Shown piece after piece: positions 1 through 14,957 of a stretch of 15,149 bases of DNA. The first letter of the stretch is position 1. Each line of letters starts with the position of its first letter. The stretch comes from Promethearchaeota archaeon (GTDB lineage Archaea; Asgardarchaeota; Lokiarchaeia; Sigyniarchaeales; SOKP01): NCBI GenBank assembly GCA_004524535.1, contig SDNY01000088.1, positions 1 through 15,149 on the forward strand, read 5' to 3'. The position numbers and the translations under genes are program-made. The notes under the pieces are model-generated. The model made no database searches, was not told where the DNA came from, and saw only the letters and a program-made list of their open reading frames with translations.

Positions 1-372
1 GATATTTTCTTGAATCAATTTATCTTGCAAAAGGTATAAAACGGTATTTTCTAAGTTTAAGCCACTTCTTCTCCCTATTGAATCGATTTTCGCATCAATT
101 TGCATTCGATCTTTTCGGGCAATTTCAAAGCCTTTATTCATTTGTTCAATTAGGGTTTCAAACCGTCTATCCATTTGCTCTTGCATCGCTTCAAACCGTC
201 TATCCATTTGCTCTTGCATCGCTTTAAATCTTCTGTCTGAATGCTCTATTATTCTTGCGATATCATCTTTTGTCGCAACAATACTAGATAAAGCGGTAAT
301 TATTGCGCCTTTGATCTCATCATCTTCTCTTATTAATTTTGGTAAGAGCTTTAAAAATTCTTCTTTTTCCAT
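1..372 (-). CDS. Partial (3'-truncated by window edge) coiled-coil protein, probably archaeal DUF3782/DUF1626-type PD-(D/E)XK nuclease-like family
   Basis: Not in the ORF track. Open frame from ATG at 372 to the window edge: MEKEEFLKLLPKLIREDDEIKGAIITALSSIVATKDDIARIIEHSDRRFKAMQEQMDRRFEAMQEQMDRRFETLIEQMNKGF...IDSIGRRSGLNLENTV... GGAGT RBS on the minus strand at 381-385. Family call is from remembered resemblance (helical N-terminus, ATKxDI, coiled coil, then a 'GxRxG' segment); the nuclease domain would lie outside the window. Confidence 0.7.
   Translation of the reverse strand, partial: MEKEEFLKLLPKLIREDDEIKGAIITALSSIVATKDDIARIIEHSDRRFKAMQEQMDRRFEAMQEQMDRRFETLIEQMNKGFEIARKDRMQIDAKIDSIGRRSGLNLENTVLYLLQDKLIQENI
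157..222. repeat. Perfect in-frame 33-bp tandem duplication (11-aa unit AMQEQMDRRFE)
   Basis: ttcaaaccgtctatccatttgctcttgcatcgc occurs at 157-189 and 190-222, with degenerate units on either side. Confidence 0.95.
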
Positions 373-697
373 TTGAAATTACTCCAGTTTCTATAATATT
401 AATGACTTCTTACATTTTTAAAAATAACCATTTTGCAATTGAATTAGCCTTAAAATTTTTCTATTTCTATATTTAAGGACGTTTACTAAAAATTATCATC
501 ATCTTTATCTAATTACAAAATGAATTATTGACTTATAACTAAATTCTGGCAATCAAGACATTAAAAAGTGAAATTATTTCATTTGAAACCTTAATTATAA
601 TACAGAGTTTTAAATTTCTAAACATAAAAATAAAGATTTATTTGAAGATAAAGATTATAACTTCGAAATTCGAGTTATGAAAAATTTATTGAGTGTT

Positions 698-705
698 AAA
701 AAAAA
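698..705 (-). terminator. Putative archaeal oligo(T) terminator
   Basis: A8 on the + strand (T8 on minus), 12 nt past the stop of 718..996. Confidence 0.5.
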
Positions 706-717
706 CAGGAGAATTTA

Positions 718-996
718 TTAGTGCTCTGCTAAAGCTTCATTTAAAACTATATTTAAGTTAACTTCAGAATTTTTAAGCTTATTAACAAAATGTCTTAAAC
801 CTTCATCATTAAGTAAAAGTTCTAATAAATTGCGATATAATCCTGTAAGATTGTCGCTTGCTGCTTCAAAATAAATATCATCTTCATCAAGATTAATGTT
901 TAAAATTTCATATAATCCTTTTATGGATTCCTTAATATTATCAAAATTCTTAATGGCCTTTTCAATTACATCCTTTTCATATTTTTTTTCGATCAT
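718..996 (-). CDS. Uncharacterised 92-aa helical protein (paralog 1)
   Basis: Has a GAGGTGAT RBS (1005-1012), its own BRE/TATA and a T-run terminator. 64/92 ungapped identities to 1309..1590 by manual count. Confidence 0.9.
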   Translation of the reverse strand: MIEKKYEKDVIEKAIKNFDNIKESIKGLYEILNINLDEDDIYFEAASDNLTGLYRNLLELLLNDEGLRHFVNKLKNSEVNLNIVLNEALAEH

Positions 997-1004
997 TTTT
1001 TTTA

Positions 1005-1059
1005 ATCACCTCAATATCATTATATGAAATGTGATATTTAAATCTTCGCATTTCGAAAT
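1005..1059 (-). promoter_or_regulatory. Archaeal promoter (BRE + TATA) and RBS for 718..996
   Basis: Minus strand reads cgaaga-TTTAAATA (TATA at 1035-1042). RBS GAGGTGAT at 1005-1012. Palindrome ATTTCGAAAT at 1050-1059. Confidence 0.7.
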
Positions 1060-1097
1060 ATTAGTTATCATTGTCGATCATATTTTATTCAGAAGTA

Positions 1098-1149
1098 CGG
1101 TTAGGTATGGGAAGCGATCGCTGGGCGATTGTTTTCGACCATCTGACCG
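1098..1149 (+). ncRNA. Candidate structured RNA hairpin, or a degenerate DNA inverted repeat
   Basis: Manual pairing: CGGTTAG/CTGACCG, ATGG/CCAT and GAAGCGATCGC/GCGATTGTTTT with a TGG loop. All non-Watson-Crick pairs are G.U on the + strand. No known RNA family recognised. Confidence 0.25.
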
Positions 1150-1273
1150 ATCGTGATCATTTATATCAATGTTCAGAGATGATCAATCTCTTGTTTATAA
1201 TTAATTTTTTTGAACATTATTTATTTTTTAGAACATATATATTATATTCAAGGAAAATAAAGTCAAAAATTTT

Positions 1274-1282
1274 AAAAAAAAA
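1274..1282 (-). terminator. Putative archaeal oligo(T) terminator
   Basis: A9 on + (T9 on minus) about 26 nt past the stop of 1309..1590. Confidence 0.5.
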
Positions 1283-1308
1283 TTGATTGATTTAAATAAA
1301 AGTAGTAT

Positions 1309-1590
1309 TTAGAATTGTTCAGCTATAGCCTCATTCAAGACTATATTCAAATCAACTTCAGAAGTCCTGAGCTTCTTCACAAATTGTTGCAAGCCATAAT
1401 CATTAATCAATAGCTCCAATATATTATGATATAAGCCTGAGAGATTTTCACTTGCCGCCTCAGAATAAAAATCATTATCATTTAAATTAATATGAAGGAT
1501 TTCGTATAATCCCTTTATGGAAGCTTTTATATTCTCAAAATTCTTAAAAGCCTTCGCCTTTGCATCTTTCATATATTTTGTTTCGATCAT
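1309..1590 (-). CDS. Uncharacterised 93-aa helical protein (paralog 2)
   Basis: Start moved from 1614 to ATG 1590: MIETKY aligns with MIEKKY of paralog 1, and a GAGGT RBS lies at 1602-1606. Confidence 0.9.
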   Translation of the reverse strand: MIETKYMKDAKAKAFKNFENIKASIKGLYEILHINLNDNDFYSEAASENLSGLYHNILELLINDYGLQQFVKKLRTSEVDLNIVLNEAIAEQF

Positions 1591-1601
1591 TTCTTTTACA
1601 A

Positions 1602-1646
1602 ACCTCGTGATCAATATATGGGAAAGGATATATAAGTCTTTCGAAA
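1602..1646 (-). promoter_or_regulatory. Archaeal promoter (BRE + TATA) and RBS for 1309..1590
   Basis: Minus strand reads cgaaaga-CTTATATA (TATA at 1629-1636). The RBS-to-TATA offset (27 nt) is identical to the paralog 1 promoter. TTTCGAAA palindrome at 1639-1646. Confidence 0.7.
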
Positions 1647-1902
1647 ACCGACATTGTTCTTTGCAATGTGATCACAAAACCCGACTGAAAACGCAAAACT
1701 GCAACCTTCAAAATAATTGGTGATCGAGAGTGATCATAAATGATTTCATGAGCGAAAGAAATTATTAAAGTCATGCACTGCATTTTCATATCCGAACATG
1801 ATCAAGACCAAATCAACAAATTTTCATATTTGAATCTTTTCAATTTTTCTGAAAACGGAGATTATTATTTTTGAAAAAAGTAATGCACTATTTAGTAGAT
1901 TT

Positions 1903-1931
1903 CGATCAATCTTGATCGTAACATTTAAATA
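1903..1931 (+). promoter_or_regulatory. TATA box with an adjacent inverted-repeat operator for 2011..2271
   Basis: CGATCAA-TC-TTGATCG (1903-1918) ends 5 nt upstream of TTTAAATA (1924-1931). Confidence 0.6.
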
Positions 1932-1953
1932 CTCTGGTAATTATTAATAAATT

Positions 1954-1988
1954 AGAAAAAAATAAAAAATCAGAAAAAAATAAAAAAT
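1954..1988. repeat. A-tract direct repeat (17 bp x2, period 18)
   Basis: AGAAAAAAATAAAAAAT at 1954-1970 and 1972-1988. Confidence 0.75.
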
Positions 1989-2010
1989 TCTAAATAAGGT
2001 GAAAAAATTA

Positions 2011-2271
2011 ATGGTTGGTAATTGTAATTGCGAAAATATTGATAGATGTTCTATCATAGGGTATCTCCCAGCGGGATTTGAATGCCCATATTTCAGACCT
2101 ATAGATGCTGAAAGCAAATTTGAAAGCACAGGTTCAAAATTAATTACAGGAACCCAAAAAATGGTTCCATTGAAAACAACAATTAAAAATGGTGTTCTGA
2201 AGGTTGTTATTAATAAAGAAGGCAAAAAGATTCCACTTGAGATTGACATACAGCAAGAATTAGATCAATAA
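2011..2271 (+). CDS. Small Cys-containing protein (4 Cys; CxC-x5-C-x11-C), paralog A
   Basis: The track's GTG at 1999 is part of the AGGTGA RBS (1997-2002). ATG 2011 aligns the N-terminus with paralog B. Shared motifs are CNCxxxDxCSIxGYxPxGFxC and GxLKVVI...GKxxPLxIDI. Confidence 0.88.
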   Translation: MVGNCNCENIDRCSIIGYLPAGFECPYFRPIDAESKFESTGSKLITGTQKMVPLKTTIKNGVLKVVINKEGKKIPLEIDIQQELDQ

Positions 2272-2280
2272 ACGTCAAAA

Positions 2281-2293
2281 GAAGATTTTATAA
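2281..2293 (+). promoter_or_regulatory. Putative BRE/TATA for 2332..2604
   Basis: gaaga-TTTTATAA (2286-2293) lies about 40 nt upstream of ATG 2332. AGTGA RBS-like sequence at 2321-2325. Confidence 0.5.
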
Positions 2294-2331
2294 TTTAAGA
2301 AAATAATAACATTAGATTATAGTGAAAAAAA

Positions 2332-2604
2332 ATGTGTAATAGCTGTAATTGTGACGATTACGATAAATGTTCTATAGTAGGATATATGCCAATAGGGTTC
2401 TGCTGTGAGAAATGCATTCTTTACGATGAGAAGCATACCTGCTTAAAAGCCCAATTATCGGTCAGGAAGAATCTAAACTTACCTGAGGATCTTAAGCCAA
2501 TCAGCACTTCAATCGAAGGTGGGCTCTTGAAGGTCGTTATCAAGCAGAAAGGTAAAGAAGTTCCGCTCTATATAGACATTAAGAAACAATTAGAATCAAA
2601 ATAA
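2332..2604 (+). CDS. Small Cys-rich putative metal-binding protein (8 Cys in the first 37 aa), paralog B
   Basis: MCNSCNCDDYDKCSIVGYMPIGFCCEKC...HTC; clear paralog of 2011..2271. Confidence 0.9.
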   Translation: MCNSCNCDDYDKCSIVGYMPIGFCCEKCILYDEKHTCLKAQLSVRKNLNLPEDLKPISTSIEGGLLKVVIKQKGKEVPLYIDIKKQLESK

Positions 2605-2668
2605 GATTTTTCCAGGGATTTTATCAATAAGGATAAGCTCTTGGAAAGGTTTATTTTGATTTAGAATA

Positions 2669-2689
2669 TTTTTTTATTTCCTCTTTTTT
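2669..2689 (+). terminator. Putative oligo(T) terminator
   Basis: T7 (2669-2675) and T6 (2684-2689) downstream of 2332..2604. Confidence 0.45.
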
Positions 2690-3034
2690 ATTTAATTAGT
2701 AGCAATTTTAGGCTAATAATCCATCTCTAAAGAAAATCATAATTCAATGATCGTTTATGGTATGTTGATGTTTTAATTACGAAATTATGTGATAAAAACT
2801 AAGCAAAAATGATGGTTTAATACAGAGCATTAATTTAAATGTCGGAGAATCATAAATAATTTATATCCTTTTTTAGAGTTAGGATCATTTTTCATGGTTT
2901 CATTTATTTATCTTTTCCATTTTTTAACTTAGTTTAAGCTATTTAATTTTAGTTATTTTTAGTTTTGGAAAAATTAAGAGAAGAGGTGATTTAATATAAT
3001 AATCATAAGAGTTTTAATTTTCAAAATTCAAAAT

Positions 3035-3056
3035 AAGATTTTTAAAACTTATATTA
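3035..3056 (+). promoter_or_regulatory. Candidate TATA region for the hdr-flx operon
   Basis: aagat-TTTTAAAA (3040-3047) and TTATATTA (3049-3056) lie 40-60 nt upstream of the hdrC ATG. The region is very AT-rich, so the assignment is weak. Confidence 0.3.
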
Positions 3057-3097
3057 TTTAAGTAAGTATTATATGAAAACAAACAAAGAAGGAAAAA

Positions 3098-3595
3098 ATG
3101 AGTGTTATAAACTTCGATTTTAGAAATGAAGTACTTTCACATAATGCTTCATTAAGTTATTGTTATCAATGTGCAACGTGCTCAGGCGCTTGTCCTGTAG
3201 CTCTTGCCACAGCAGGGAAATATAATCCTCGAAAAATCATAGAACTTTCTATTTTAGGTCTTCAAGATAAATTAATTGAAGGGGTGGATGTGAGTGTATG
3301 GTTATGTTCAACCTGTCAGACGTGTGTAGAATTATGTCCACAGAAAGTTGAATTAACAGAGATTTTTACCTTGATTAAAAATAGATCGTTTGAAGAGGGA
3401 AAAATTCCAGAGGGATTTCAATTACAAGGGCAATCGATTGTTGATAATGGGGTTGCAATTCCCTACTCTAAAGCGATTGAATCTCGTCGTGAGAAATTAG
3501 GTTTACCAAAGGTAAAAACAGCGTCAGTTGATGAGATAAAAACAATTTTGAAGGAAACAAATTTTGAAAAAAATATATTAAAGGTGGGGAAATAA
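3098..3595 (+). CDS. hdrC: Heterodisulfide reductase subunit C
   Basis: Two [4Fe-4S] motifs, CYQCATCSGACP and WLCSTCQTCVELCP, with NPRKII between them; directly upstream of hdrB. Confidence 0.95.
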   Translation: MSVINFDFRNEVLSHNASLSYCYQCATCSGACPVALATAGKYNPRKIIELSILGLQDKLIEGVDVSVWLCSTCQTCVELCPQKVELTEIFTLIKNRSFEEGKIPEGFQLQGQSIVDNGVAIPYSKAIESRREKLGLPKVKTASVDEIKTILKETNFEKNILKVGK

Positions 3596-3598
3596 ATT

Positions 3599-4483
3599 AT
3601 GGCTTATGATGTATTTTTAGGGTGCGTAATTCCCGCGAGATTACCTTATTTGGAGGCATCTGCGAGAAAAGTTTTTACTCGGCTTGGTATTCAACTGAAT
3701 GATGTAGAGGGGTTTAGTTGTTGTCCTGATCCAACTGGTATTGAGCAAATTGATCATAAAACATGGTTGGCATTAGGTTCCAGAAATTTAAGTTTATCGA
3801 AAAATCAAAACGGAGAGATAATTTCATTTTGTTCTGGTTGTGTTGAGACATTAAAGGGTGTTAATTATTACGTTAACAAAGATTCTGAGGCATTGAAAGA
3901 AGTAAATACGATTTTAAGTAAGGTTGGTAAGAAATATGATGGAAAAACCAAGGTTAAGCATTTTGCCGAGGTACTTTATGAAAATCTTGATAAGGTAAGA
4001 GATAATGTAACAAGGCCTTTATATGGGTTTAAAGTTGCAGTTCATTATGGATGCCATTACCTTCGTCCTTCTGAGATTATTGATTGGGATGATCCTTTTG
4101 AACCTAATACCATCGATGAAATCGTAAAGGCTCTTGGAGCAGAATCCGTCGATTATGAGATGAAGATGGAATGTTGCGGAAATCCCGTAGAAAAAACAGA
4201 TAAAGATCTGTCTCTTTTATTGATTGAAAACAAATTGAAATCCATTCAAAATGCAGGTGCAAATTGTGTTGTCGTTGTCTGTCCTGCTTGTTATCAGCAG
4301 TTTGAATTCAATCAAAGAGAGCTTAATAAGAAGAATAATACTAACTATGATATCCCAATATTCTATCTTTCAGAGCTTTCAGCTTTGGCATTTGGATTTA
4401 AGCCTGATGATATCGGTTTAAAGTTTCATAGAGTACGACCAAATGCACTATTTGAAAATACAGGATTTATAAAGGAAAGCTAA
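3599..4483 (+). CDS. hdrB: Heterodisulfide reductase subunit B (two CCG domains)
   Basis: FLGC...SCCPDP...FCSGC and HYGCH...ECCG...VCPAC; both non-cubane cluster motifs are present. Confidence 0.96.
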   Translation: MAYDVFLGCVIPARLPYLEASARKVFTRLGIQLNDVEGFSCCPDPTGIEQIDHKTWLALGSRNLSLSKNQNGEIISFCSGCVETLKGVNYYVNKDSEALKEVNTILSKVGKKYDGKTKVKHFAEVLYENLDKVRDNVTRPLYGFKVAVHYGCHYLRPSEIIDWDDPFEPNTIDEIVKALGAESVDYEMKMECCGNPVEKTDKDLSLLLIENKLKSIQNAGANCVVVVCPACYQQFEFNQRELNKKNNTNYDIPIFYLSELSALAFGFKPDDIGLKFHRVRPNALFENTGFIKES

Positions 4484-4557
4484 ATTAAAGCTTTTTAATT
4501 GAAATTAGGAAAAATATAATTAAAATAAATTAAATTAAAAATTCATGGTAGAAAAAA

Positions 4558-5646
4558 ATGGCTATAGCAAATAAAACATTTAAAGATCTTGAAGAAGAGG
4601 TAATCTCCAAAGGGGAATGTTGTGCATGTGGAGGTTGTGTATCATATTGTGAACTTCAAGGTTTTAATGTAATTGAAATGAAGGGCTATACTCCCACATT
4701 TAAATCAGATAAAACTGTTGATAATTGCAAGGAATGTGGTGTATGTTTCTATGTTTGTCCTCAGACCACTCCTTTATTGGACAAATTAAATGAGATACAT
4801 CAAGTTAAGGATGAGTTAGGTAACATTAGAGATGTGTTGGCTGCGAAAACCACAGATGCTGTAATTAAAGAGGTTGGACAGGATGGAGGTATTGTATCAA
4901 CAATTTTAAAATATTTATTCGAAACAAATAATATTGATGCCGCTATTGTCTCTGAATATAATGAAAATTTTGAACCTATACCAAAACTAATTTTTAATAA
5001 AGATATGTTGTCAAAGTCAGCAGGAACAAGATATTCTATTTCATCTAATATTTTACCTTTAAAAGATTTATATATAAATGCTCAAGATATACTTTCCCAA
5101 CAAAAGAGAATTTTTGATATTGATCAAATGCGAGTTGCCTTTATAGGAACCCCTTGTCAATGTAGAGCAATAAATAAGATGAAATTGTTAAATGTAAAAC
5201 CTGCTCATATAATTAGTATTGTTATTAGTCTCTTTTGTTTTGAGAATTTTGATTATAACAAACTTATGGAGACTCTCAAATCTAAAGTAAATGTAGAGGC
5301 AGCCAATATTAAAAAAACGAATATAAAGAAAAATTTCTTTGTTTTTACGAAGGATAACCAAAAACTTGAAGTTAATATAAAAGATCTGGATGAAGCAGTG
5401 AGGAATCATTGCCATTCATGTGATGAGTTTACAGGAAGATTTTCAGATATCAGTATTGGGGCGTCTGGAGCTCCAGAAGGGTATTCCATGGTACTAATTC
5501 GAACCGAGAAAGGAGCAACATTAATCGATTCAGTACTCTCTGTTGGATATATCGAAAGATATACCATTCCAATAGATCAAGTTTCAGAATGGAGACCTAA
5601 GAAGCTTAATTGGCTTAAGAAAATGATATCTTTAAAAACAAAATAA
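4558..5646 (+). CDS. FrhB/FdhB-family coenzyme F420 oxidoreductase subunit with an N-terminal 2x[4Fe-4S] domain (FpoF/FqoF-like)
   Basis: CCACGGCVSYC and CKECGVCFYVCP, followed by FrhB motifs GQDGGIVS, AGTRY, GTPCQ, LFCFENF and CHSCDEFTGRFSDISIG. Confidence 0.9.
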   Translation: MAIANKTFKDLEEEVISKGECCACGGCVSYCELQGFNVIEMKGYTPTFKSDKTVDNCKECGVCFYVCPQTTPLLDKLNEIHQVKDELGNIRDVLAAKTTDAVIKEVGQDGGIVSTILKYLFETNNIDAAIVSEYNENFEPIPKLIFNKDMLSKSAGTRYSISSNILPLKDLYINAQDILSQQKRIFDIDQMRVAFIGTPCQCRAINKMKLLNVKPAHIISIVISLFCFENFDYNKLMETLKSKVNVEAANIKKTNIKKNFFVFTKDNQKLEVNIKDLDEAVRNHCHSCDEFTGRFSDISIGASGAPEGYSMVLIRTEKGATLIDSVLSVGYIERYTIPIDQVSEWRPKKLNWLKKMISLKTK

Positions 5647-5664
5647 AATGTTATAGTGATTAAA

Positions 5665-6969
5665 ATGGGAGAAAATTCTAAAAGTGTTCTTATAATAGGT
5701 GCGGGAATTGCTGGGATCCAAGCAGCATTAGATTTAGGAGATATGGGAATAAAAGTATATTTAATTGAAAAAAATCCTTGTATAGGAGGAAGAATGTCAC
5801 AATTAGATAAGACATTTCCCACCCTTGACTGTTCTATCTGTATTTTAGCGCCCAAATTATCGGAATGTTATCGGCATCCGAATATTACGCTATATACACT
5901 TTCAGAAGTTCAAAAGGTAGAAGGCAAAATTGGAAATTTTACAGTTGAAGTTTTAAAGCATGCCCGTTATGTAAAAGAGGATGCTTGTACGAACTGCGGT
6001 GATTGTGCGGCAATTTGTCCTGTAAGAGGCGTGAAAAATTATTTTGATGCTGATTTAAAAACTCAAGCGGCAATCTTTATTCCATTTCCAGCAGCAGTAC
6101 CGCCAGTTTATATGATCGATAAAGATGCGTGCGTTAATCTAAACTATGGTATTTGTGGATTATGTGCCCAGAATTGTGGAGCAGAGGCTATAGACCTAAC
6201 GCAAAAAGACAGTGTGCTTACTATTGATAATGTGAGTGCGATAATAGTAGCTACAGGATTAGATCTAGATGAAAATATAGCCCCACTGAGCCATTATGGA
6301 TATGGCATTTATCAAAATGTTGTAACTGCGATGGAATTTGAGAGATTAATATGTGCGTCTGGACCGCAAGCAGGGCATCTAAAGAGGATATCTGATGGCG
6401 TAGACCCAAAAAAGATTGCATTTCTTCAATGTATAGATTCACGTACTCAAAGAGCTCAGAAGTATTGTTCAGCCATATGCTGTATGTATACAACAAAAGA
6501 AGCGATGGTTGCTTTTGAGCATAATGATGAATTAGAATCTTACGTTTTTTATATTGATATGAGAGCAGGTGGAAAAGGATTTCAAAACTTTCTTGGAAGA
6601 GGAAAAGATGAATATAATATCAAATACATTAAAAGCAAGATAGCTAAAGTGAATGTTGATGAAAATGAAAGTCCTATTATTGTTTATGAAGATTTAGACT
6701 CAGGGGAAATTAAACAAATGACTGTCGATATAGTTGTATTAGCTACATGTATAATACCTACATTAGGATTAGATAAATTAGCGAATATTTTAGATATCGA
6801 ATTAAATGAATATAGATATGTGAAAACCGATCCATTTTTCCCTGTTGAAACAAGTAAGGAAGGAATTTTTACGTGCGGTTGCGCACGTGAACCAATGGAT
6901 ATCCCTCGTTCTGTTGCTGAAGCGAGTGGAGCAGCAGCACGAGCTGCAGAAGTAATAAGAGGAGGTTAA
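5665..6969 (+). CDS. hdrA: HdrA-family flavoprotein module I (FAD domain + inserted ferredoxin; lacks N-terminal and C-terminal FeS domains)
   Basis: IIGAGIAG, LDKTFPTLDCSIC, CTNCGDCAAICP, CGLCAQNC, EFER and QC...YCSAICCMYTTK. Start moved to ATG 5665 (AGTGAT RBS). Confidence 0.92.
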   Translation: MGENSKSVLIIGAGIAGIQAALDLGDMGIKVYLIEKNPCIGGRMSQLDKTFPTLDCSICILAPKLSECYRHPNITLYTLSEVQKVEGKIGNFTVEVLKHARYVKEDACTNCGDCAAICPVRGVKNYFDADLKTQAAIFIPFPAAVPPVYMIDKDACVNLNYGICGLCAQNCGAEAIDLTQKDSVLTIDNVSAIIVATGLDLDENIAPLSHYGYGIYQNVVTAMEFERLICASGPQAGHLKRISDGVDPKKIAFLQCIDSRTQRAQKYCSAICCMYTTKEAMVAFEHNDELESYVFYIDMRAGGKGFQNFLGRGKDEYNIKYIKSKIAKVNVDENESPIIVYEDLDSGEIKQMTVDIVVLATCIIPTLGLDKLANILDIELNEYRYVKTDPFFPVETSKEGIFTCGCAREPMDIPRSVAEASGAAARAAEVIRGG

Positions 6970-6976
6970 GATTAAA

Positions 6977-8668
6977 ATGTCAGAAGAAGAAGAAGAAATT
7001 CGAATTGGAGTTTTTGTTTGTCATTGTGGTTCCAATATTGGAGGATATATAGATTGTAAATCGATTGCTGAATGGGCAAAATCATTACCGCATGTAGTTT
7101 TTACTCAAGATAATCTATATACATGCTCGGAGACGGGTTTAGCACAAATTAAAAAGGGTGTTAATGAAAATAATTTAAATAGAGTTATTGTTGCTTCTTG
7201 TACACCAAGAACTCATGAACCTTTATTTCGTTCTTGCATTCAGGAGGAAGGTGTGAACCCTTACCTATTTAATTTTGTTAATATTCGGGATCAGAATACA
7301 TGGGTCCATCAGAAAGAACCGGAAAAGGCTTTCGAGAAAGCAAAGGAACTTATCGCTATGGGAGTAGCAAAGGCTGCAAAACTTGAACCTTTAGAAAAAA
7401 TCATTGTTGATACAACTCCGACAGCATTAGTTATAGGTGCTGGTGTAGCAGGAATAACTGCTGCTCTTAGTATGGCAAATCAAGGTTTTGAAACACATTT
7501 AGTTGAAAAAGAGGCTGAGATTGGAGGAAAGTTAAATATTTTGGATAAACTCTATCCTACAAATCAAGATGCATCAGAACTTTTAAAGAGTCTTAAAAAA
7601 AGAGTGAATGATAATACAAATTTAACGGTATATACCTCCGCATCAGTAAAAAGTATTGAAGGATTTATAGGAAATTTTGAGATTGAAATAGAACAAAATG
7701 GAAATGTGAAAGAGTTAACAATTGGAGTTATCATTGTTGCTGTTGGAGCATCTTTATTTACACCAACCGGATTATTTAATTATGATGGGCAGAAACGCAT
7801 AACTCAAGCTGAATTAGAAACATTATTGAAAAATAATCAAGTAGAATCTAGTAATGTAGTAATGATTCAATGTGTTGGATCTCGTATTGAAGAGAGAAAA
7901 TATTGTTCAAGCGTTTGTTGCATGGTTGCCCTTAAGAATGCCTTGGAAATAAAAGAAAGAAATCCTAAGGCAAATGTAACAATTCTCTTTAGAGATTTAT
8001 ATACACCAGGAACTTATTATGAAGATTATTATAGAAGGGCAAGAGAAGCAGGTGTTATCTTTATAGAATATGCACCTGAAAAAATGCCGATTGTTGAAGA
8101 TAATCAAGTTAGAGTACATAATGAATATCTTGGACAAGATATATTAATTCCATATGATCTAGTCGTCCTTTCAACACCGTTAGTATCAAATGAGGATAAT
8201 AAAGATATTGCACAAATGCTGAAAGTTCCGTTAGAAGAAAATGGGTTCTTCCTTGAAGCTCACGTAAAATTGCGACCAATGGATTTTGCTACTGATGGAG
8301 TATACATCTGTGGCTCTGCTAAATGGCCTGTAGATATTACTGAATCTATTGCACAAGGGTATGCAGCAGCCTCTAGGGCAAGCACGATTATTTCTCATAG
8401 TACTTTAGAAGTTGAAGGCGCCACATCATCATTACCCGAATATAATAGGAATTTATGTACTGGTTGTGAAGTTTGCATTACCGTCTGTCCTTATAAAGCC
8501 ATAAGCAAGGATGAAAATGATGAAATCTTAATTCAACAGGTCTTATGTAAAGGATGTGGTGTATGCGGTGCTACATGCACAAATCACGCAATTGTTATAA
8601 GGCATTTTACGGATGATCAAATTTTATCAGAAATATTAGCATTTGGAGGTCAGTACGATGGTGTTTGA
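6977..8668 (+). CDS. hdrA: HdrA-family flavoprotein module II (N-terminal CHCG domain + FAD domain + C-terminal ferredoxin; no inserted ferredoxin)
   Basis: IGVFVCHCGSNI, YTCS, ASCTPRTHE, NIRDQ, VIGAGVAG, QCVGSR..YCSSVCC, EAHVKLRP, CTGCEVCITVCP and CKGCGVCGATC. GGAGG RBS at 6961-6965. Confidence 0.93.
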   Translation: MSEEEEEIRIGVFVCHCGSNIGGYIDCKSIAEWAKSLPHVVFTQDNLYTCSETGLAQIKKGVNENNLNRVIVASCTPRTHEPLFRSCIQEEGVNPYLFNFVNIRDQNTWVHQKEPEKAFEKAKELIAMGVAKAAKLEPLEKIIVDTTPTALVIGAGVAGITAALSMANQGFETHLVEKEAEIGGKLNILDKLYPTNQDASELLKSLKKRVNDNTNLTVYTSASVKSIEGFIGNFEIEIEQNGNVKELTIGVIIVAVGASLFTPTGLFNYDGQKRITQAELETLLKNNQVESSNVVMIQCVGSRIEERKYCSSVCCMVALKNALEIKERNPKANVTILFRDLYTPGTYYEDYYRRAREAGVIFIEYAPEKMPIVEDNQVRVHNEYLGQDILIPYDLVVLSTPLVSNEDNKDIAQMLKVPLEENGFFLEAHVKLRPMDFATDGVYICGSAKWPVDITESIAQGYAAASRASTIISHSTLEVEGATSSLPEYNRNLCTGCEVCITVCPYKAISKDENDEILIQQVLCKGCGVCGATCTNHAIVIRHFTDDQILSEILAFGGQYDGV

Positions 8669-9410
8669 ACCAAAAATTTTAGGATTTTTATGTAATTGGT
8701 GTTCCTATGCAGGAGCTGACTTGGCAGGAGTAAGCAGAGTCCAGTATCCTCCGAACATCAGAGTTATACGTGTAATGTGTAGTGGTCGAGTTGACCCTAT
8801 GTTTATTTTTAAGGCATTTCAAGTAGGGGCCGATGGTGTTATTGTTATGGGGTGTCATCCAGGAGATTGTCATTATCTCGAAGGGAATTATGAAGCAGAA
8901 AAAAAATACAATATGACTGAGAAATTCCTAAAACTAATCGGGTTTGATAATCGAGTAAGATTAGAATGGGTTTCCGCTTCAGAGGGAACTAGATATGGAG
9001 CAGTAGTTACGGAATTTACCCAACAAATTAAGGATGCCGGTCCCTCTCCAGCTAAGGATAATGAAGAATTACTCTTTAAATTAAAAGCTCTTGAAATGGC
9101 AGCTGCAACTGATCGAATGAGAGCATTAGTTGGAAGGGAAAGACACATTACAGAAGATGAAAATGTTTATGGAGAAAAAGTGTCTTTAGAAAAATTTAAT
9201 GAAATATTTGATAAAGCAATTAAGGATGAATATGAACGAGCACAAGTTTTACTTTCTTTAGAGAAAGGAGTAAATAATGTTAAACTATTAGCTGCTAAAT
9301 TAGATATTGATCCAAGTATTGTTTTAGAACATTTATTAATTTTAAAACAACGTATGGAAATTGATTTTGGCGAAATTATGGAAAATACACCAGTATTTGT
9401 GAGGTTATAA
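8658..9410 (+). CDS. mvhD: MvhD-type [2Fe-2S] subunit with a ~115-aa C-terminal extension ending in a winged-HTH-like segment
   Basis: FLCNWCSYAGADLAG, RVMCSGRV, GCHPGDCHY and WVSASEG. Start moved to ATG 8658 (GGAGGT RBS at 8645-8650); overlaps the upstream hdrA by 11 nt. Confidence 0.9.
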   Translation: MVFEPKILGFLCNWCSYAGADLAGVSRVQYPPNIRVIRVMCSGRVDPMFIFKAFQVGADGVIVMGCHPGDCHYLEGNYEAEKKYNMTEKFLKLIGFDNRVRLEWVSASEGTRYGAVVTEFTQQIKDAGPSPAKDNEELLFKLKALEMAAATDRMRALVGRERHITEDENVYGEKVSLEKFNEIFDKAIKDEYERAQVLLSLEKGVNNVKLLAAKLDIDPSIVLEHLLILKQRMEIDFGEIMENTPVFVRL

Positions 9411-9420
9411 GGTGAATAAT

Positions 9421-12400
9421 ATGGAAAAAATAGGAGCTGTTATGGTTGTTGGTGCCGGAATTGGTGGATCTCAAGCTTCTTTAGATCTTGGGGATGCAGG
9501 GTTTAAAATATATCTGATTGAATCGAGTACTAGCATCGGTGGGGTAATGGCACAATTAGACAAGACATTTCCGACAAATGATTGTGCTATGTGTATTGTG
9601 AGTCCTAAGCTTGTAGAAACTGGACGTCATCAAAATATAGATTTGAGTATAAATTGTGAAATTTTGGATGTTTCGGGAGAAGCTGGAAATTTTACAGTCA
9701 AAGTAAAGAAAAAATCATTATATATAGATCCTGATGTATGTACGGGTTGTGGAGTTTGTGGTCAAAATTGTCCTGTTGAAGCTATTGATCTCTTTAATGA
9801 AGGACTTGCTAAATATAAGGCTACCTCTGTAAAATATCCACAAGCGGTCCCATTAGTGTATGCAATAAATAAAGATTATTGTATTGGATGTGGTATATGT
9901 TTAGGAGTTTGTAAGGCCAAGGCAGTTCAATATGATCGAGAAGATGAGATTGTTGATATTAATGTTGGTGCTGTTATATTAGCACCTGGATTTGATGAAT
10001 ATGTACCTCCTGAAGGGAACTTATATGGATATGGTAAATATAAAAATGTGGTCACAAGTATTGAATTTGAACGTATATTAAGTGCAAGTGGCCCTTATGC
10101 AGGAAAGGTACTGCGTCCTTCAGATGGAGATATTCCAATAGATGTAGCATTTATTCAATGTGTTGGCTCTCGTGATTATTCAGGAGTAGGAAAACCATAT
10201 TGTTCTTCCGTGTGTTGTATGTATACCGCTAAAGAAGCAGTTATTGCTCATGAACATATGCATCAAATCGAGCCTACTATTTTTAGTATGGATATTAGGG
10301 CATATGGGAAAGATTTTGATAAATATATCATTCGAGCTCAAGAAGAATATCATGTTAAATATATTAGAAGTCGTATCTCTTCGGTCACAGAAATTCCCGA
10401 GACCAAAGATTTGAGAATAAGATACGAAACAGAGGATGGAAAAATACTCGAAAAAGATTTTCAAATGGTTGTACTTTCAGTAGGATTAAATCCTCCTGAT
10501 GATGCCAAATATTTAGCTGATAAATTTGGAATAGATTTAAACGAGTATGATTTTGCAAAAACAGATATATGGAATCCAGTGCAGACTTCAAAGCCAGGAA
10601 TTTATGCTTGCGGAGCATTTTCTCAACCTAAAGATATTCCTGAAACTGTAACTCAAGCTAGTGCAGCGGCTGGATGTGTTAATCAGCTTTTATATGATAA
10701 ACGAGGAACTTTAATAACAGAAAAATCATTACCTCCAGAAATCTTTGTAGCAGGACAGCCCCCTAGGATTGGTGTCTTTATTTGTCATTGTGGAATAAAT
10801 ATTGGAGGATTTGTTGATGTTCCTGAAGTAACAAGATATGCAGGTACTCTACCTAATGTAGTTATGTCTGATAGGAATTTATATACATGTTCAGCTGATA
10901 CTCAGACAATAATAAAAGAGAAAATAAAAGAATATAATCTCAATAGGGTTATTGTAGCATCTTGTACTCCACGAACTCATGAACCATTATTCCAAGAAAC
11001 GATTAGAGAAGCAGGATTAAATAGGTATCTCTTTCAAATGGCCAACATTAGAGACCAATGTTCCTGGGTACACATGAATGAACCTGAGGCGGCTACCCAA
11101 AAAGCAAAGGACTTAGTAAGAATGGCAGTAAATAAAGCACGCAATATCGAACCGCTTAACAGGATAAAATTAAGCATTACTCCAAAAGCTCTTGTTATAG
11201 GCGGTGGTATAACTGGAATGACTGCTGCACTTAATTTTGCCAGCCAAGATTTTGAAACTTATTTAGTTGAAAAAGAAGCACAACTAGGAGGTTTTGCACG
11301 CCATATCTATCATACCCTTGAAGGTGGAGATGTTCAAGAATTTCTGAAAGATCTGATTAATAAAGTTAAATCCAATAAAAACATTCATGTGTATACAGAA
11401 GCAGAAATAGAAGATGTAGCCGGTTATCTAGGGAACTTTAAAACTACTCTCGTCCATGGAAAAAATAAGGAAAAGGCAGAATTTGATCATGGAGTTGTAG
11501 TGGTTGCGACAGGTGCTCAAGAATATAAACCTAAAGAATATCTTTATGGCCAAAATGATAAAGTTATCTTACAATCTGAATTAGAAAAAATGATTAATAC
11601 TTCAGATGACATCAAGAATAAAAAATCAATTGTTATGATCCAATGTGTTGGGTCAAGAAACGAAGAACATCCTTATTGTAGTAAAATGTGCTGCGCAGAG
11701 GCGATTAAAAACGCACTAAGAATTAAAGAAAAATATCCTTCATGCGAAATAACAATTCTTTTCCGAGATATTAGAACATATGGATTTAAAGAGAAATTTT
11801 ATAGAGAAGCGCGAAAGAAGGGAGTTCTATTTTTAAGATATGATGAGGATAATCTGCCAGAAGTTAGTCAAGAGGATTCCCAATTAAAAGTAAAAGTGAC
11901 TACTGCAAGAAAAGATACTATTTATGTTAATGCTGATTTATTAGCTTTAAGTGCAGGGATCATTTCTGATCGTGAAGAGAATGAAGAGTTAGCAATGATG
12001 TTAAAAGTACCATTAAATGATGATAATTTCTATTTAGAAGCTCATGTCAAGCTTCGACCAGTTGATTTCGCAACTGAGGGTGTATTTGTTGCGGGATTAG
12101 CACATTGTCCGAAAACAATTGAAGATTGCATTTCTCAAGCTAATGCTGCAGTTTCAAGAGCATGTACCATCCTTTCTAAGGATGAGGTGGAGGCTGAGGG
12201 TAAAGTTGCAATGATTAATGTTGCGCGTTGTATTGGCTGTGGAATGTGTGTTGAAAATTGTGCCTATAGTGCTATTGAAATTGTTGAGGACAGAAGATTT
12301 GGGAGAGTGGCTTCTATTAACCAAGCATTATGTAAAGGTTGTGGCGCTTGTTCAGGTAATTGTAGATGTTCAGCGATTGATATTTTAGGATTTACCTCTG

Positions 12401-12435
12401 AACAAATATATGCAATGATTACAGGGAGGTTATAA
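9421..12435 (+). CDS. hdrA: Large two-module HdrA (module I + module II fused, ~1004 aa)
   Basis: VVGAGIGG...DKTFPTNDCAMC, two ferredoxin motifs and YCSSVCCMYTAK, then IGVFICHCGINI, VIGGGITG, YCSKMCC and a C-terminal CIGCGMCVENC / CKGCGACSGNC. Start moved to ATG 9421 (AGGTGA RBS at 9410-9415). Confidence 0.95.
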   Translation: MEKIGAVMVVGAGIGGSQASLDLGDAGFKIYLIESSTSIGGVMAQLDKTFPTNDCAMCIVSPKLVETGRHQNIDLSINCEILDVSGEAGNFTVKVKKKSLYIDPDVCTGCGVCGQNCPVEAIDLFNEGLAKYKATSVKYPQAVPLVYAINKDYCIGCGICLGVCKAKAVQYDREDEIVDINVGAVILAPGFDEYVPPEGNLYGYGKYKNVVTSIEFERILSASGPYAGKVLRPSDGDIPIDVAFIQCVGSRDYSGVGKPYCSSVCCMYTAKEAVIAHEHMHQIEPTIFSMDIRAYGKDFDKYIIRAQEEYHVKYIRSRISSVTEIPETKDLRIRYETEDGKILEKDFQMVVLSVGLNPPDDAKYLADKFGIDLNEYDFAKTDIWNPVQTSKPGIYACGAFSQPKDIPETVTQASAAAGCVNQLLYDKRGTLITEKSLPPEIFVAGQPPRIGVFICHCGINIGGFVDVPEVTRYAGTLPNVVMSDRNLYTCSADTQTIIKEKIKEYNLNRVIVASCTPRTHEPLFQETIREAGLNRYLFQMANIRDQCSWVHMNEPEAATQKAKDLVRMAVNKARNIEPLNRIKLSITPKALVIGGGITGMTAALNFASQDFETYLVEKEAQLGGFARHIYHTLEGGDVQEFLKDLINKVKSNKNIHVYTEAEIEDVAGYLGNFKTTLVHGKNKEKAEFDHGVVVVATGAQEYKPKEYLYGQNDKVILQSELEKMINTSDDIKNKKSIVMIQCVGSRNEEHPYCSKMCCAEAIKNALRIKEKYPSCEITILFRDIRTYGFKEKFYREARKKGVLFLRYDEDNLPEVSQEDSQLKVKVTTARKDTIYVNADLLALSAGIISDREENEELAMMLKVPLNDDNFYLEAHVKLRPVDFATEGVFVAGLAHCPKTIEDCISQANAAVSRACTILSKDEVEAEGKVAMINVARCIGCGMCVENCAYSAIEIVEDRRFGRVASINQALCKGCGACSGNCRCSAIDILGFTSEQIYAMITGRL

Positions 12436-12438
12436 AAA

Positions 12439-12873
12439 ATGACACAAACAGAAACCAAAACAGAATCTGAGGAATGGACCCCCAAAATTATCGCATTCTT
12501 ATGTAATTGGTGTTCCTATGCGGGGGCAGACTTAGCGGGTGTGAGTAGAATTCAATATCCACCTAATATTAGAATTGTTCGAGTACCATGCTCAGGTAGA
12601 GTATCTCCGTTTTTTATTATAAAAAGTTTAATGGATGGTTGGGACGGCGTTGTGATCTCAGGATGCCATCCAGGCGATTGCCATTATATTAGTGGTAATT
12701 TAGTTGCCAGAAGACGTTTTGGTATAATAAGAGATGTATTAGAGTTTTTTGGAATAGAGCCAGGCAGAGTTAATTTTATGTGGGCATCTGCAGCGGAAGG
12801 AGAACGATTTGCGGTTTTAATTAGAAAGGCAACAAAAATTATAAAAGAATTAGGACCAATTAAAAAATTCTAA
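12439..12873 (+). CDS. mvhD: MvhD/FlxD [2Fe-2S] subunit
   Basis: FLCNWCSYAGADLAG, RVPCSGRV, GCHPGDCHY and WASAAEG; standard length; GGAGGT RBS upstream. Confidence 0.94.
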   Translation: MTQTETKTESEEWTPKIIAFLCNWCSYAGADLAGVSRIQYPPNIRIVRVPCSGRVSPFFIIKSLMDGWDGVVISGCHPGDCHYISGNLVARRRFGIIRDVLEFFGIEPGRVNFMWASAAEGERFAVLIRKATKIIKELGPIKKF

Positions 12874-12891
12874 GATAAATGGTGTTAAAGG

Positions 12892-13902
12892 ATGGGATTA
12901 GAAGAAGATAATAAAAAGATTGAAGAATCGATGAGAGAAACAGCAAGAAAATTGCTGGAAGATAAAGAAGTAGATGCTGTTATAGGATACACAGAAGGAA
13001 CATTACCAATGAGTTCCATGGCTATGGTAATCACTAGAGCAGAAGATGTAGATAAACTCATATGGAATAATTATTGTTATATTAATTTAGCTACTTATTT
13101 AGTTCCTCGAATCGCACAACTCGTAGATCCTGAGAAAGGAGATTTAAAAGTTGGTGTTATTTCAAAGGGTTGTGTTGGAAGAGCAATTATCCATTTAAAA
13201 GTTGAGGGTCAATTAAATCTTGATAATGTCAAAATTATTGGAATTCCTTGTAATGGTATAATCGATAGAAAAAGAATTGAGAAAGAAATTGGTCAAAAGG
13301 AAATTCTTGAAGTTTCTACATCTGGAAATGAAATAATTGTTAAGGGGAGAGATTTTGAAGAAAAATTTGCTTTTGATGAATATATACTTAATGTATGTAA
13401 GCAATGTAAGGTAAAATCACCTCCCAATGTTGATGATGCATGTGTCGGAGAATGCCAAGAGATTGAATCGGTCTCTGATGATTATAGCGATCTCGCTGAA
13501 TTCGAAGCTTTAAGTGCTGAGGAGAAATGGAATCATATCACAGAATTATTAGAACAATGTACAAAATGCCATGCTTGTAGAGAAGCATGTCCGATGTGCT
13601 ATTGCAATCTCTGTTTTGTCGATCAAAATAAACCCATTTGGTTTGGAAAAACCACAGATCTCTCTGATATCATTGTATTTCATTTAATTCGGTCAATACA
13701 TCTAGTTGGAAGATGTGTGGCTTGCGGAGCATGTACTAGTGTATGTCCTATGGGAATAGATTTAAATTTACTTATACGAAAAGTCGAAAGAATCGCAAAA
13801 GATCGATTTGATTTTACTTCCGGCCTAAGTAGTAAAGTTATGCCACCAATGATGGATTTTAGTATGAATGATTCACAAGAATTTATGCTTGAGGAGGATT
13901 AA
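12892..13902 (+). CDS. flxC: FlxC-like 4Fe-4S protein (FdhB/FrhB C-terminal related)
   Basis: KGC...GIPC...CKQC, CTKCHACREACPMCYCNLC and GRCVACGACTSVCP. Its position matches the hdrCBA-flxDCBA gene order. Confidence 0.8.
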   Translation: MGLEEDNKKIEESMRETARKLLEDKEVDAVIGYTEGTLPMSSMAMVITRAEDVDKLIWNNYCYINLATYLVPRIAQLVDPEKGDLKVGVISKGCVGRAIIHLKVEGQLNLDNVKIIGIPCNGIIDRKRIEKEIGQKEILEVSTSGNEIIVKGRDFEEKFAFDEYILNVCKQCKVKSPPNVDDACVGECQEIESVSDDYSDLAEFEALSAEEKWNHITELLEQCTKCHACREACPMCYCNLCFVDQNKPIWFGKTTDLSDIIVFHLIRSIHLVGRCVACGACTSVCPMGIDLNLLIRKVERIAKDRFDFTSGLSSKVMPPMMDFSMNDSQEFMLEED

Positions 13903-13906
13903 AAAA

Positions 13907-14941
13907 ATGAGTGAAAAAATATTAAATAAAGATCAAATTGGAAAATTTTACAATGAATTTTCCGATTATAATTTTTATGCTCCAGTTAATGAAAAAGGTA
14001 ATATTCTCTTTAAAAAAATCTCGAACCCAGATGAGATAGTTTTAGACTTTCTAAATTCTAAAATACCCCCTAAATCAGTTTTATTTCCAAATAAAGAGAT
14101 TCTGTTTGAATATGAATATGAGGGTAAAGATGTTATTATTAAAGAAAGAGACGATTTAGATGAAAAATATGTATTATTTGGAGTTAGACCCTGTGATGCA
14201 TATAGTTTTCAATTGATGGCGAACTTTTTCTCCTTTCATGGAAATTGTGAGGATGAAATTTACCTTAAAAAGAAAGAAAATACTCTTATAATTGGTATGG
14301 GTTGCAATACTCCAAAACAGACTTGCTTTTGTACATCTGTTGGAGGGAATCCATTTAAAAAAGAAGACTCAGACATTTTCTTAGTTGATTTAGGAGAAAA
14401 ATATTTAGTTGAAGCTATCTCCGATAAGGGAAAGGAATTAATACAGAAAATGTCTTGGCTCGCTGATGCTACTAATGCTGATAAACAAAAAGCGAAGGAA
14501 TTAGCGAAAAAAGCAGAAGAGATGATTACGACTCAAATAGATGCTGAAAAAATAAATAATATCTTAGACGAAAATTTTAAGCATCCTATTTGGAAGGAAG
14601 TAGCTGAGAGCTGTGTGGGGTGTGGCACATGCGCATTTTTATGCCCTACATGTACATGCTTTGATGTTATTGAAGAGCATGACCATTATACGAATAAGGG
14701 TAAAAGAATACGTATCTGGGATACTTGCCAAGCTCCACTCTATTCAATGGAAACAAGCGGACATAATCCGCGCCCAACAAAAATAGAAAGATGTAGAAAT
14801 CGTATCATGCATAAATTTAGCTATTATCCAAAAAATTATGATTTAACTGGCTGTGTTGGCTGTGGACGTTGTGTTTCATATTGTCCTGCGAATAATGATT
14901 TAAGATCAATCCTTAAAGAAATTGAACAAATTGAATCATAA
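13907..14941 (+). CDS. flxB: FlxB / AsrA / HydB-family 4Fe-4S protein
   Basis: GVRPCD, CFC, CVGCGTCAFLCPTCTC, RIWDTC and GCVGCGRCVSYCP. Start moved to ATG 13907 (GAGGAGG RBS at 13891-13897). Confidence 0.85.
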   Translation: MSEKILNKDQIGKFYNEFSDYNFYAPVNEKGNILFKKISNPDEIVLDFLNSKIPPKSVLFPNKEILFEYEYEGKDVIIKERDDLDEKYVLFGVRPCDAYSFQLMANFFSFHGNCEDEIYLKKKENTLIIGMGCNTPKQTCFCTSVGGNPFKKEDSDIFLVDLGEKYLVEAISDKGKELIQKMSWLADATNADKQKAKELAKKAEEMITTQIDAEKINNILDENFKHPIWKEVAESCVGCGTCAFLCPTCTCFDVIEEHDHYTNKGKRIRIWDTCQAPLYSMETSGHNPRPTKIERCRNRIMHKFSYYPKNYDLTGCVGCGRCVSYCPANNDLRSILKEIEQIES

Positions 14942-14957
14942 AAGGTGAAAAAAGTAT

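Follow-up and report, generated by a model that had tools for sequence, protein, structure and literature searches.

Fourteen hexamers of the form YGATCR, that is, GATC preceded by a pyrimidine and followed by a purine, are packed between positions 990 and 1918 of a 15,149-nucleotide stretch of a Promethearchaeota archaeon genome (contig SDNY01000088.1, positions 1 to 15,149; hereafter the window), where they cover the control regions of four small genes. We herein propose that these sites very likely form a conserved, helically phased multi-site operator of one transcription factor (TF). An earlier note on the same DNA had put forward either such an operator or a methylation-sensitive switch, and the operator is now well supported by arrays that are unique in the genome, by their recurrence at orthologous genes and on metagenome contigs, by alignment footprints that include site turnover, and by helical phasing. 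As far as our literature searches show, the array is an undescribed piece of Asgard gene control, since a survey at the level of titles turned up no description of a TF motif, operator or regulon in Asgard archaea.

Rarity of the array in the genome

The GATC tetramers of the array start at 991, 1076, 1116, 1149, 1155, 1181, 1585, 1609, 1670, 1722, 1732, 1800, 1904 and 1914. All 14 have the Y..R flanks (six TGATCA, six CGATCA/TGATCG and two CGATCG), whereas the GATCs at 312 (TGATCT), 2262 (AGATCA) and 2487 (GGATCT) do not. Twelve sites are intergenic (997-1308 and 1591-2010, 732 bp together). Genes 718-996 and 1309-1590, both on the minus strand, each have one of the remaining two across their ATG-ATC-G start, and neither contains a GATC deeper in its sequence. 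The flank rule, its exceptions and this placement had been stated in the earlier note and proved accurate.

The genome assembly comprises 3.66 Mb at 30.4% G+C and 99% completeness. In public records, homologues of proteins encoded in the window are labelled Lokiarchaeota or Promethearchaeota, which marks the host as an Asgard archaeon. GATC occurs at expectation both in the window (57 copies vs 54.6 +/- 6.5 in shuffles, i.e., no window-wide excess) and in the genome (2.80/kb, equal to the mononucleotide expectation). It is the local density together with the flanks that is exceptional, and not the tetramer itself. YGATCR makes up 1,606 of the 10,258 genomic GATCs (15.7%; 0.44/kb), with 0.39/kb outside open reading frames (ORFs) of at least 100 aa (222 of 1,119 GATCs) and 0.45/kb inside them. 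The densest YGATCR kilobase of the whole genome is the window array with its 14 sites; the next holds six, followed by four with five each.

One may ask whether the array is a product of chance, base composition or tandem duplication. The two minus-strand genes are indeed tandem duplicates, and the repeat that stems from their duplication (142 nt, 905-1046 and 1499-1640, 76% identical) covers both start-codon sites. Yet the duplication accounts for this pair of sites only. Upstream of the two genes, the alignment ends after the first ~50 bp, and five to seven sites are nevertheless present in front of each. Moreover, the probability that 14 of 14 GATCs have YR flanks is 1.4e-10 at the intergenic rate, and the Poisson probability of 14 or more sites in 929 bp is 5e-18. 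Given these tests, the ranking of densities in the genome and the enrichment upstream of orthologues in other genera (see below), we reject this explanation, whose likelihood we regard as negligible.

The intergenic DNA is very AT-rich and contains two G+C-richer islands, at 1085-1160 and 1640-1720, both of which hold sites; the first is partly conserved in the related metagenome locus L106 (G-, L- and g-numbers are our working labels for sampled genomes, loci and genera, and C-numbers denote contigs, the window being contig C15). The islands may represent a small RNA or extended protein contacts. A scan against Rfam matched no family, its sole sub-threshold match being a chance one, and gave nothing at the islands.

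Recurrence and conservation in relatives

The four genes encode two pairs of paralogues, namely acidic helical proteins (718-996 and 1309-1590) and Cys-rich proteins (2011-2271 and 2332-2604). The concerns raised in the earlier note, that YGATCR might be equally dense in other intergenic DNA of the genome or absent upstream of orthologues in relatives, are not borne out: other intergenic DNA is not equally dense, and YGATCR clusters are present upstream of the orthologues of the small genes. Upstream of the helical family (-400 to +4; 29 loci of other genomes), 55 of 89 GATCs are YGATCR in 11.5 kb (4.8/kb), against 49 of 236 in the 75.9 kb that make up the rest of these loci (0.65/kb; Fisher odds ratio 6.4, p 4e-12, a value that is overstated because the relatives are not independent). 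The corresponding figures for the Cys-rich family (-1000 to +4; 29 loci) are 76 of 153 GATCs in 27.6 kb (2.8/kb) and 37 of 213 in 58.5 kb (0.63/kb), and at least two sites are found at 23 of the 29 loci, including loci unlinked to a helical gene; the two locus sets share three overlapping locus pairs on the same contigs and are not fully independent. On 15 independent metagenome contigs, whose loci were retrieved with a single protein as query, the density reaches 8.4/kb upstream vs 1.4/kb in the rest, while a control family from the same genomes (wHTH-FeS-FrhB fusions, 23 loci; wHTH, winged helix-turn-helix) shows 0.86/kb upstream vs 0.48/kb elsewhere. Such recurrence upstream of orthologues is not explicable by chance or composition.

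Alignment of the control regions with those of the closest relatives, G002 and the metagenome loci L106 and L107 (proteins 75-78% identical), revealed GATC cores at +2, -83, -135/-145 and -213 as islands of identity. The hexamer at -83 reads TGATCA, CGATCG and TGATCA in three genomes, i.e., its flanks change jointly and stay Y..R. A site lost in one genome is offset by another a few turns away; similarly, for sites 1075-1185 compared with L106, the cores are conserved, the flank swaps keep Y..R, and one loss is paired with one nearby gain. Judged from these alignments, the pattern is that of a putative binding-site cluster under stabilising selection.

A search for triple-site patterns across the relatives was noisy, as many matches were coding tandem repeats, and genomes of other families, maybe of different base composition, gave far more of them. 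Long, apparently coding 9-36 bp tandem repeats of GATCA/GACCA words were observed in several relatives (G017:C257:4741-4926, G024:C103:5957-6115, G031:C448 and G019:C48); these repeats are unrelated to the promoter arrays and inflate naive counts of GATC clusters.

Helical phasing of the sites

Spacings between adjacent sites tend to be whole helical turns, at 10, 21-22, 31-33, 40-41, 51-52, 61 and 71-73 bp. All adjacent spacings together (n=80) give a Rayleigh R of 0.42 at 10.2 bp (p about 8e-7); R is 0.36 (p 3e-4) when spacings are counted once per genus (n=64), and 0.43 at 10.0 bp (p 5e-5) when the window and its nearest relative are left out (n=54). All other YGATCR pairs of the genome (n=113) give an R of 0.08-0.12.

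Placement relative to predicted promoters

The features of the window that bear on the array are listed below by position; the palindromic sites are given without strand.

718-996, minus strand: helical protein paralogue 1 (92 aa, small, acidic, all-helical; no Pfam or NCBIfam family)
990-995: YGATCR site CGATCA, overlapping the ATG-ATC-G start of gene 718-996; position kept in L106, L007 and L107
1035-1043, minus strand: predicted TATA-like box ATTTAAATA of gene 718-996; conserved in L106
1075-1185: five YGATCR sites (1075-1080, 1115-1120, 1148-1153, 1154-1159, 1180-1185) in the DNA that precedes gene 718-996, at -83 to -188 relative to the ATG
1309-1590, minus strand: helical protein paralogue 2 (93 aa, acidic, all-helical; 70% identical to paralogue 1)
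1584-1589: YGATCR site CGATCA, overlapping the ATG-ATC-G start of gene 1309-1590
1608-1613: YGATCR site TGATCA, where transcription of gene 1309-1590 is predicted to start
1669-1804: four YGATCR sites (1669-1674, 1721-1726, 1731-1736, 1799-1804) in the divergent control region
1903-1918: two YGATCR sites (1903-1908, 1913-1918; 10 bp apart), ending 4 nt upstream of the predicted TATA box of the Cys-rich gene
1923-1931, plus strand: predicted TATA box ATTTAAATA of Cys-rich gene 2011-2271; kept in L007
2011-2271, plus strand: Cys-rich small protein paralogue 1 (86 aa)
2332-2604, plus strand: Cys-rich small protein paralogue 2 (90 aa; N-terminal half acidic with 8 Cys, C-terminal half basic and beta-rich)

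A TATA-like box, identified by eye at ~1627-1636 (minus strand), precedes site 1608-1613 by ~20 bp, and L007 and L107 keep the GATC of this site with the flank TGATCT. In the divergent region, positions -83, -135/-145 and -213 are kept in G002 (L007) and in metagenome locus L107.

The closeness of several sites to TATA boxes could suggest a specialised core-promoter element, such as a BRE-like sequence (BRE, TFB recognition element) read by a particular TFB or TBP paralogue. Besides site 1913-1918 of the window, a predicted TATA box on contig C116 is flanked on both sides, with sites 2 nt upstream and 1 nt downstream of it, and sites adjoin TATA boxes also in the relatives L009, L017 and L024. 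However, only 7 of the 1,812 TTTAAATA boxes of the genome have a YGATCR within 6 nt upstream, which argues against a general promoter element, and the occurrence of single sites beside unrelated genes looks accidental. Of the 14 sites, moreover, most lie 30-300 bp from any TATA box, and a single BRE would not suffice for five to eight helically phased sites per promoter. We consider a core-promoter element very unlikely.

A model of the operator and the points against it

We postulate that the 14 sites are bound by one sequence-specific, probably dimeric DNA-binding regulator. Operator 1 (991-1185) would serve gene 718-996, and operator 2 (1585-1918) a divergent pair of promoters, one for gene 1309-1590 and one for the Cys-rich genes 2011-2604. 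Some sites would place the protein on core promoter or early transcribed DNA (1608), others on start codons (991, 1585) or just upstream of a TATA box (1903-1918), and the sites further upstream, which tend to be whole helical turns apart, may allow protein on one face of the DNA to bind cooperatively by wrapping or looping. In the DNA-bound state, the regulator would block TFB/TBP or RNA polymerase, resulting in ligand-dependent repression. Repression through occupation of the core promoter is, in our judgement, a reasonably probable direction of control; activation or dual control is possible, with less weight.

Several points weigh against an operator of this kind. A palindrome of 6 bp is short for a helix-turn-helix (HTH) dimer, and the usual Lrp boxes span 13-15 bp with an AT-rich centre. 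The symmetrised count matrix of the sites holds little information beyond the hexamer. Within the window alone, the phasing is modest, with about 6 of 12 spacings in phase, and at the lrp/glnA loci described below (n=37) it is weaker and inflated by relatedness, with an R of 0.35-0.37 at 10.2-10.4 bp and a p of about 0.01. Finally, the TATA boxes and transcription starts were read by eye from the sequence.

The wider regulon

The earlier note had framed the sites as the control of a four-gene cassette, which turns out to be too narrow, since the same sites mark lrp-glnA and some FrhB/Hdr-type genes. The whole genome has only 20 intergenic clusters of at least two YGATCR, and those named next are the largest after the array of the window. 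Four sites lie on contig C116 between a glutamine synthetase gene (glnA) and a divergent Lrp/AsnC gene; C151 carries three sites and one non-YR GATC between two divergent FrhB-type genes, one of them with a TrmB-type HTH (Pfam), and also a site pair at C151:20038 in front of a second Lrp paralogue; and on C152 a YGATCR cluster lies between FrhB-like and HdrA-like genes.

In six other genomes with the same type of glnA and a full upstream region, 4, 3, 1, 4, 2 and 4 sites were found upstream of glnA. Of 37 genomes of the taxonomic family, 29 have an Lrp orthologue, as do 4 of 5 from a sister family (51-68% identity in the two samples). The 400 bp upstream of 43 lrp loci contain 56 YGATCR among 84 GATCs in 17.1 kb (3.3/kb), compared with 0.55/kb in the rest of the locus for the first 28 of them; at least one site occurs at 26 of the 43 loci and at least three at 10. 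In genera g1, g3, g4, g9 and g11, every lrp locus but one (on a g1 contig cut short upstream) has one to four sites. By tblastn, lrp was placed adjacent to glnA in G000, G002, G030 and G060, and when 11 further loci were tested, nine had a glutamine synthetase gene divergent from lrp. In the lrp-glnA regions, AT-rich arms surround a ATGATCAT-like core. Three genomes of genus g8 are without an Lrp orthologue, without the helical family and without any triple cluster. The most constant members of the regulon are the small-gene families themselves. Taken at the level of sequence, there is a conserved predicted regulon in this Lokiarchaeal family. The two small-gene families belong to it; the divergent lrp-glnA pair joins them in several genera, as do some redox genes of the FrhB/Hdr type in the genome of the window.

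The distribution of the arrays also bears on whether they could be replication-origin iterons, a partition site or what is left of a mobile element. GATC repeats that are densely packed, phased and set beside long AT-rich stretches do resemble bacterial oriC and the GATC-bearing initiator sites of Vibrio chromosome 2. Nevertheless, arrays stand at several unlinked promoters per genome (C15, C116, C151 and C152) and follow particular gene families across genera, even when the genes are unlinked. In addition, no longer repeat unit surrounds the hexamers, and the 16 ORFs of the window contain no Orc1/Cdc6, Rep, integrase or transposase domain. An origin, partition or mobile-element function thus appears extremely improbable.

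Several further loci attracted our attention. Contig C151 encodes redox modules fused to DNA-binding domains (4126-5574, 5795-7243 and 17042-19591), namely FrhB with a TrmB-type HTH, and a DUF7347 N-terminal domain (a weak winged-HTH match) with HdrA-like and MvhD modules; it is possible that such fusions are redox-sensing regulators. At E <= 1e-20, every genome of the taxonomic family contains 1-11 matches to the FrhB-type family. We considered the wHTH-FeS-FrhB fusion of C151 as an autoregulated factor and rejected it, since its sites are kept only in the same-genus orthologue. In the sister family, three tandem 32-bp repeats, each with a TGATCC, and one TGATCG lie directly upstream of an Lrp orthologue (L215, G039:C22), and in G036 three TGATCA/TGATCG sites 27-29 bp apart precede another; these sequences suggest a related GATC-centred operator in a second Lokiarchaeal family. 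Two site pairs were also noted in the genome of the window: one with a spacing of 11 bp (C50:8701-8717), ~360 bp upstream of an actin-family (Lokiactin-type) gene, and one with a spacing of 22 bp (C115:16230-16257), ~170 bp upstream of a third, distant helical-protein paralogue that is adjoined by a PhoU_div (DUF47) gene.

Candidate regulators

No TF gene was found as a conserved neighbour of the arrays among 12 related loci. Our first candidate for the binder is the Lrp/AsnC protein encoded next to glnA (C116:6892-7386), a tentative choice that we regard as plausible. The protein has an HTH plus a ligand domain (PF13412, PF13404, PF01037), and its nearest solved relatives are PH1519/FL11 (6e-23) and ST1022. 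We place it first because archaeal Lrp/AsnC proteins occupy several phased sites as oligomers and because lrp adjoins glnA in haloarchaea. Two papers describe archaeal Lrp-like proteins that bind several phased sites as higher oligomers, and present lrp next to glnA as typical of halophiles, with Lrp inducing glnA in Halobacterium (PMC2894021, PMC8229911); a further paper describes oligomeric, DNA-wrapping binding by Sa-Lrp, the glutamine-responsive Lrp of Sulfolobus acidocaldarius (PMC3584215). Two observations speak against this candidate: 13 of 16 lrp promoters in genus g2 lack a site, though the small genes of g2 carry five to eight, and G018 (99% complete) has arrays and no match to an lrp orthologue.

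The second candidate, a doubtful one, is the Cys-rich small protein. With a pLDDT of 64, its predicted model is poor, and no DNA-binding fold was found to match it; its tandem paralogues would be unusual for a regulator. More specifically, the 8-Cys protein could be a new metal- or redox-sensing type of DNA-binding protein, with YGATCR as its recognition sequence and with its own tandem genes, beside Hdr-type clusters, under its control, which we deem unlikely. The helical protein is improbable as a DNA binder because it is acidic (median pI of the family 4.7).

GATC methylation

As every site is centred on GATC, a Dam-dependent epigenetic switch of the pap/agn43 type has to be weighed, in which methylation of GATC and binding of the regulator would be mutually exclusive and would give heritable ON and OFF states of the cassette. 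The methylase that such a switch presupposes, and that the earlier note had suggested looking for, is present in the genome: a DpnM-like Dam at C26:43242-44195 (TIGR00571, 295 bits with a cut-off of 115; PDB 2dpm, DpnM, 5e-75), whose GATC specificity is predicted from homology and whose best PADLOC model is 'orphan methyltransferase'. Orphan GATC methylases persist in several archaeal taxa, according to a published study (PMC10609329). GATC is not avoided in this genome. A member of the Lrp family belongs to the predicted regulon, as Lrp acts at pap.

The other part of the idea fared less well. Among the 35 genomes of the taxonomic family, a match to the Dam family was obtained in only 20, and four genomes without one nevertheless keep their arrays, namely G021 (100% complete, eight sites), G018 (99%, five), G033 (94%, four) and G002 (82%, seven). 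This comparison covers the Dam family; members of other methylase families could also methylate GATC. Since arrays persist in complete genomes without a Dam match, a Dam switch is not the conserved mechanism, and could act as an extra layer in this strain. Furthermore, the strict Y..R flanks are nothing that Dam requires, and suggest a protein that reads six bases. Overall, we consider a Dam switch improbable. In Dam-positive strains, an Lrp-type regulator might compete with Dam for the phased operators and thereby set heritable ON and OFF states of the cassette, perhaps also of lrp-glnA, which seems to us quite unlikely. To our knowledge, a pap-like switch would be the first in any archaeon.

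The dam gene lies in a methylase island (C26:41657-46748) that comprises a LAGLIDADG-domain ORF, the DpnM-like Dam, ORFs of 304 aa and 179 aa, and a CcrM-like N6/N4 methylase. For the 304-aa protein, encoded beside Dam, neither Pfam nor PDB nor PADLOC gave a match; it might be a GATC endonuclease, and Dam may accordingly be an orphan or belong to a restriction system.

The small proteins and their neighbourhood

The earlier note had called the four small genes unknown, and searches of Pfam, NCBIfam and the ESM Atlas indeed returned no family for either kind of protein. We sampled 35 genomes of the taxonomic family and 24 from other families of the class. The helical family is present in 29 of the former and none of the latter, the Cys-rich family in 28 and 4, respectively; the Cys-rich genes usually stand in tandem arrays with YGATCR clusters upstream. 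AlphaFold2 predicts a helical hairpin or bundle for helical paralogue 2 (pLDDT 85), which has no specific PDB match (Foldseek best E 1.9; VIA-align best Z 7.5, the noise level for helical models). The two Cys-rich paralogues of the window are 40% identical to each other. Their acidic 8-Cys half has a pI of about 4.5 and their basic half a pI of 9.0-9.8; the latter shows three beta strands and a helix in the weak predicted model, and fold searches gave a best E of 0.18 in Foldseek and a best Z of 4.1 in VIA-align. A predicted complex of the helical and the Cys-rich protein scored 0.02, which has no bearing either way on their binding.

The Cys-rich genes (2011-2604) lie directly upstream of an HdrC/HdrB/FrhB-like/HdrA-like/MvhD cluster (3098-14941), in which a domain scan revealed a fusion of MvhD with an ArsR-type HTH (8643-9410; the HTH lies just under the Pfam cut-off). 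In the relatives L007, L008, L113 and L119, the small genes also adjoin a class-I pyridine-nucleotide disulfide oxidoreductase gene and an HdrC-like gene, and in G028 a YGATCR array stands between a Cys-rich gene and an HdrC-like gene. It is conceivable that the Cys-rich proteins serve these Hdr-type complexes as thiol/disulfide or metal-cluster partners. At the other end of the window, a truncated coiled-coil gene (1-372, minus strand) contains a perfect 33-nt (11-aa) tandem repeat near 162-229 and has a weak sub-threshold match to DUF3782.

Implications and comparison with known systems

The sites offer a six-base word with a grammar, in which many copies stand whole helical turns apart over core promoters, and their conserved set of predicted targets would tie nitrogen assimilation (glnA, lrp) to two orphan small-protein families and to Hdr/FrhB-type redox genes. 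Together with two named candidate binders, they make up a concrete, testable piece of Asgard gene control. Since the core of the hexamer is a Dam site and some members of the lineage encode Dam, this locus is suited to asking whether methylation modulates archaeal transcription. Should the array be merely an ordinary repressor operator, it would still give the first functional handles on four genes without known function; should competition with Dam prove true, it would be a pap-like epigenetic switch in an Asgard archaeon.

In gene arrangement, there is a close likeness to the haloarchaeal lrp-glnA pairs (Halobacterium salinarum, Haloferax mediterranei): here, a gene of the archaeal Lrp/AsnC (FFRP) type with HTH and ligand domains is divergent from glutamine synthetase. 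As for Sa-Lrp, several sites per promoter at whole-turn spacing would fit oligomeric wrapping, with binding by the Lrp of C116 being a prediction. The differences from Lrp systems are nonetheless considerable: the box there is 13-15 bp long with an AT-rich centre, whereas here we see a 6-bp GATC-centred palindrome with weak AT-rich arms; the lrp promoters of g2 are mostly without sites; and the main targets are two orphan small-protein families that, with these queries, occur almost only in one Lokiarchaeal family.

The E. coli switches pap (Lrp and Dam) and agn43 (OxyR and Dam) likewise have GATC within regulator sites at a promoter, and our genome offers predicted sites of this kind, a Dam-family gene and an Lrp-family candidate. 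Those switches use two to three GATC sites, as opposed to 14 here; in the archaeal family, the arrays are not conserved together with Dam, the sites keep constrained Y..R flanks, and the host has TBP/TFB promoters.

NrpR, the nitrogen repressor of methanogens (glnA, nif), is similar as an archaeal repressor with operators over the start region of glnA-type promoters and with nitrogen genes in its regulon; it belongs to another protein family and reads another operator, and we draw a functional analogy only, no search for NrpR having been made. Finally, the RctB 12-mers of Vibrio cholerae chromosome 2 also form arrays of closely and regularly spaced short sites with a GATC core. They belong to a bacterial origin and are bound in a methylation-dependent manner, whereas the arrays described here stand at several promoters per genome and follow genes.

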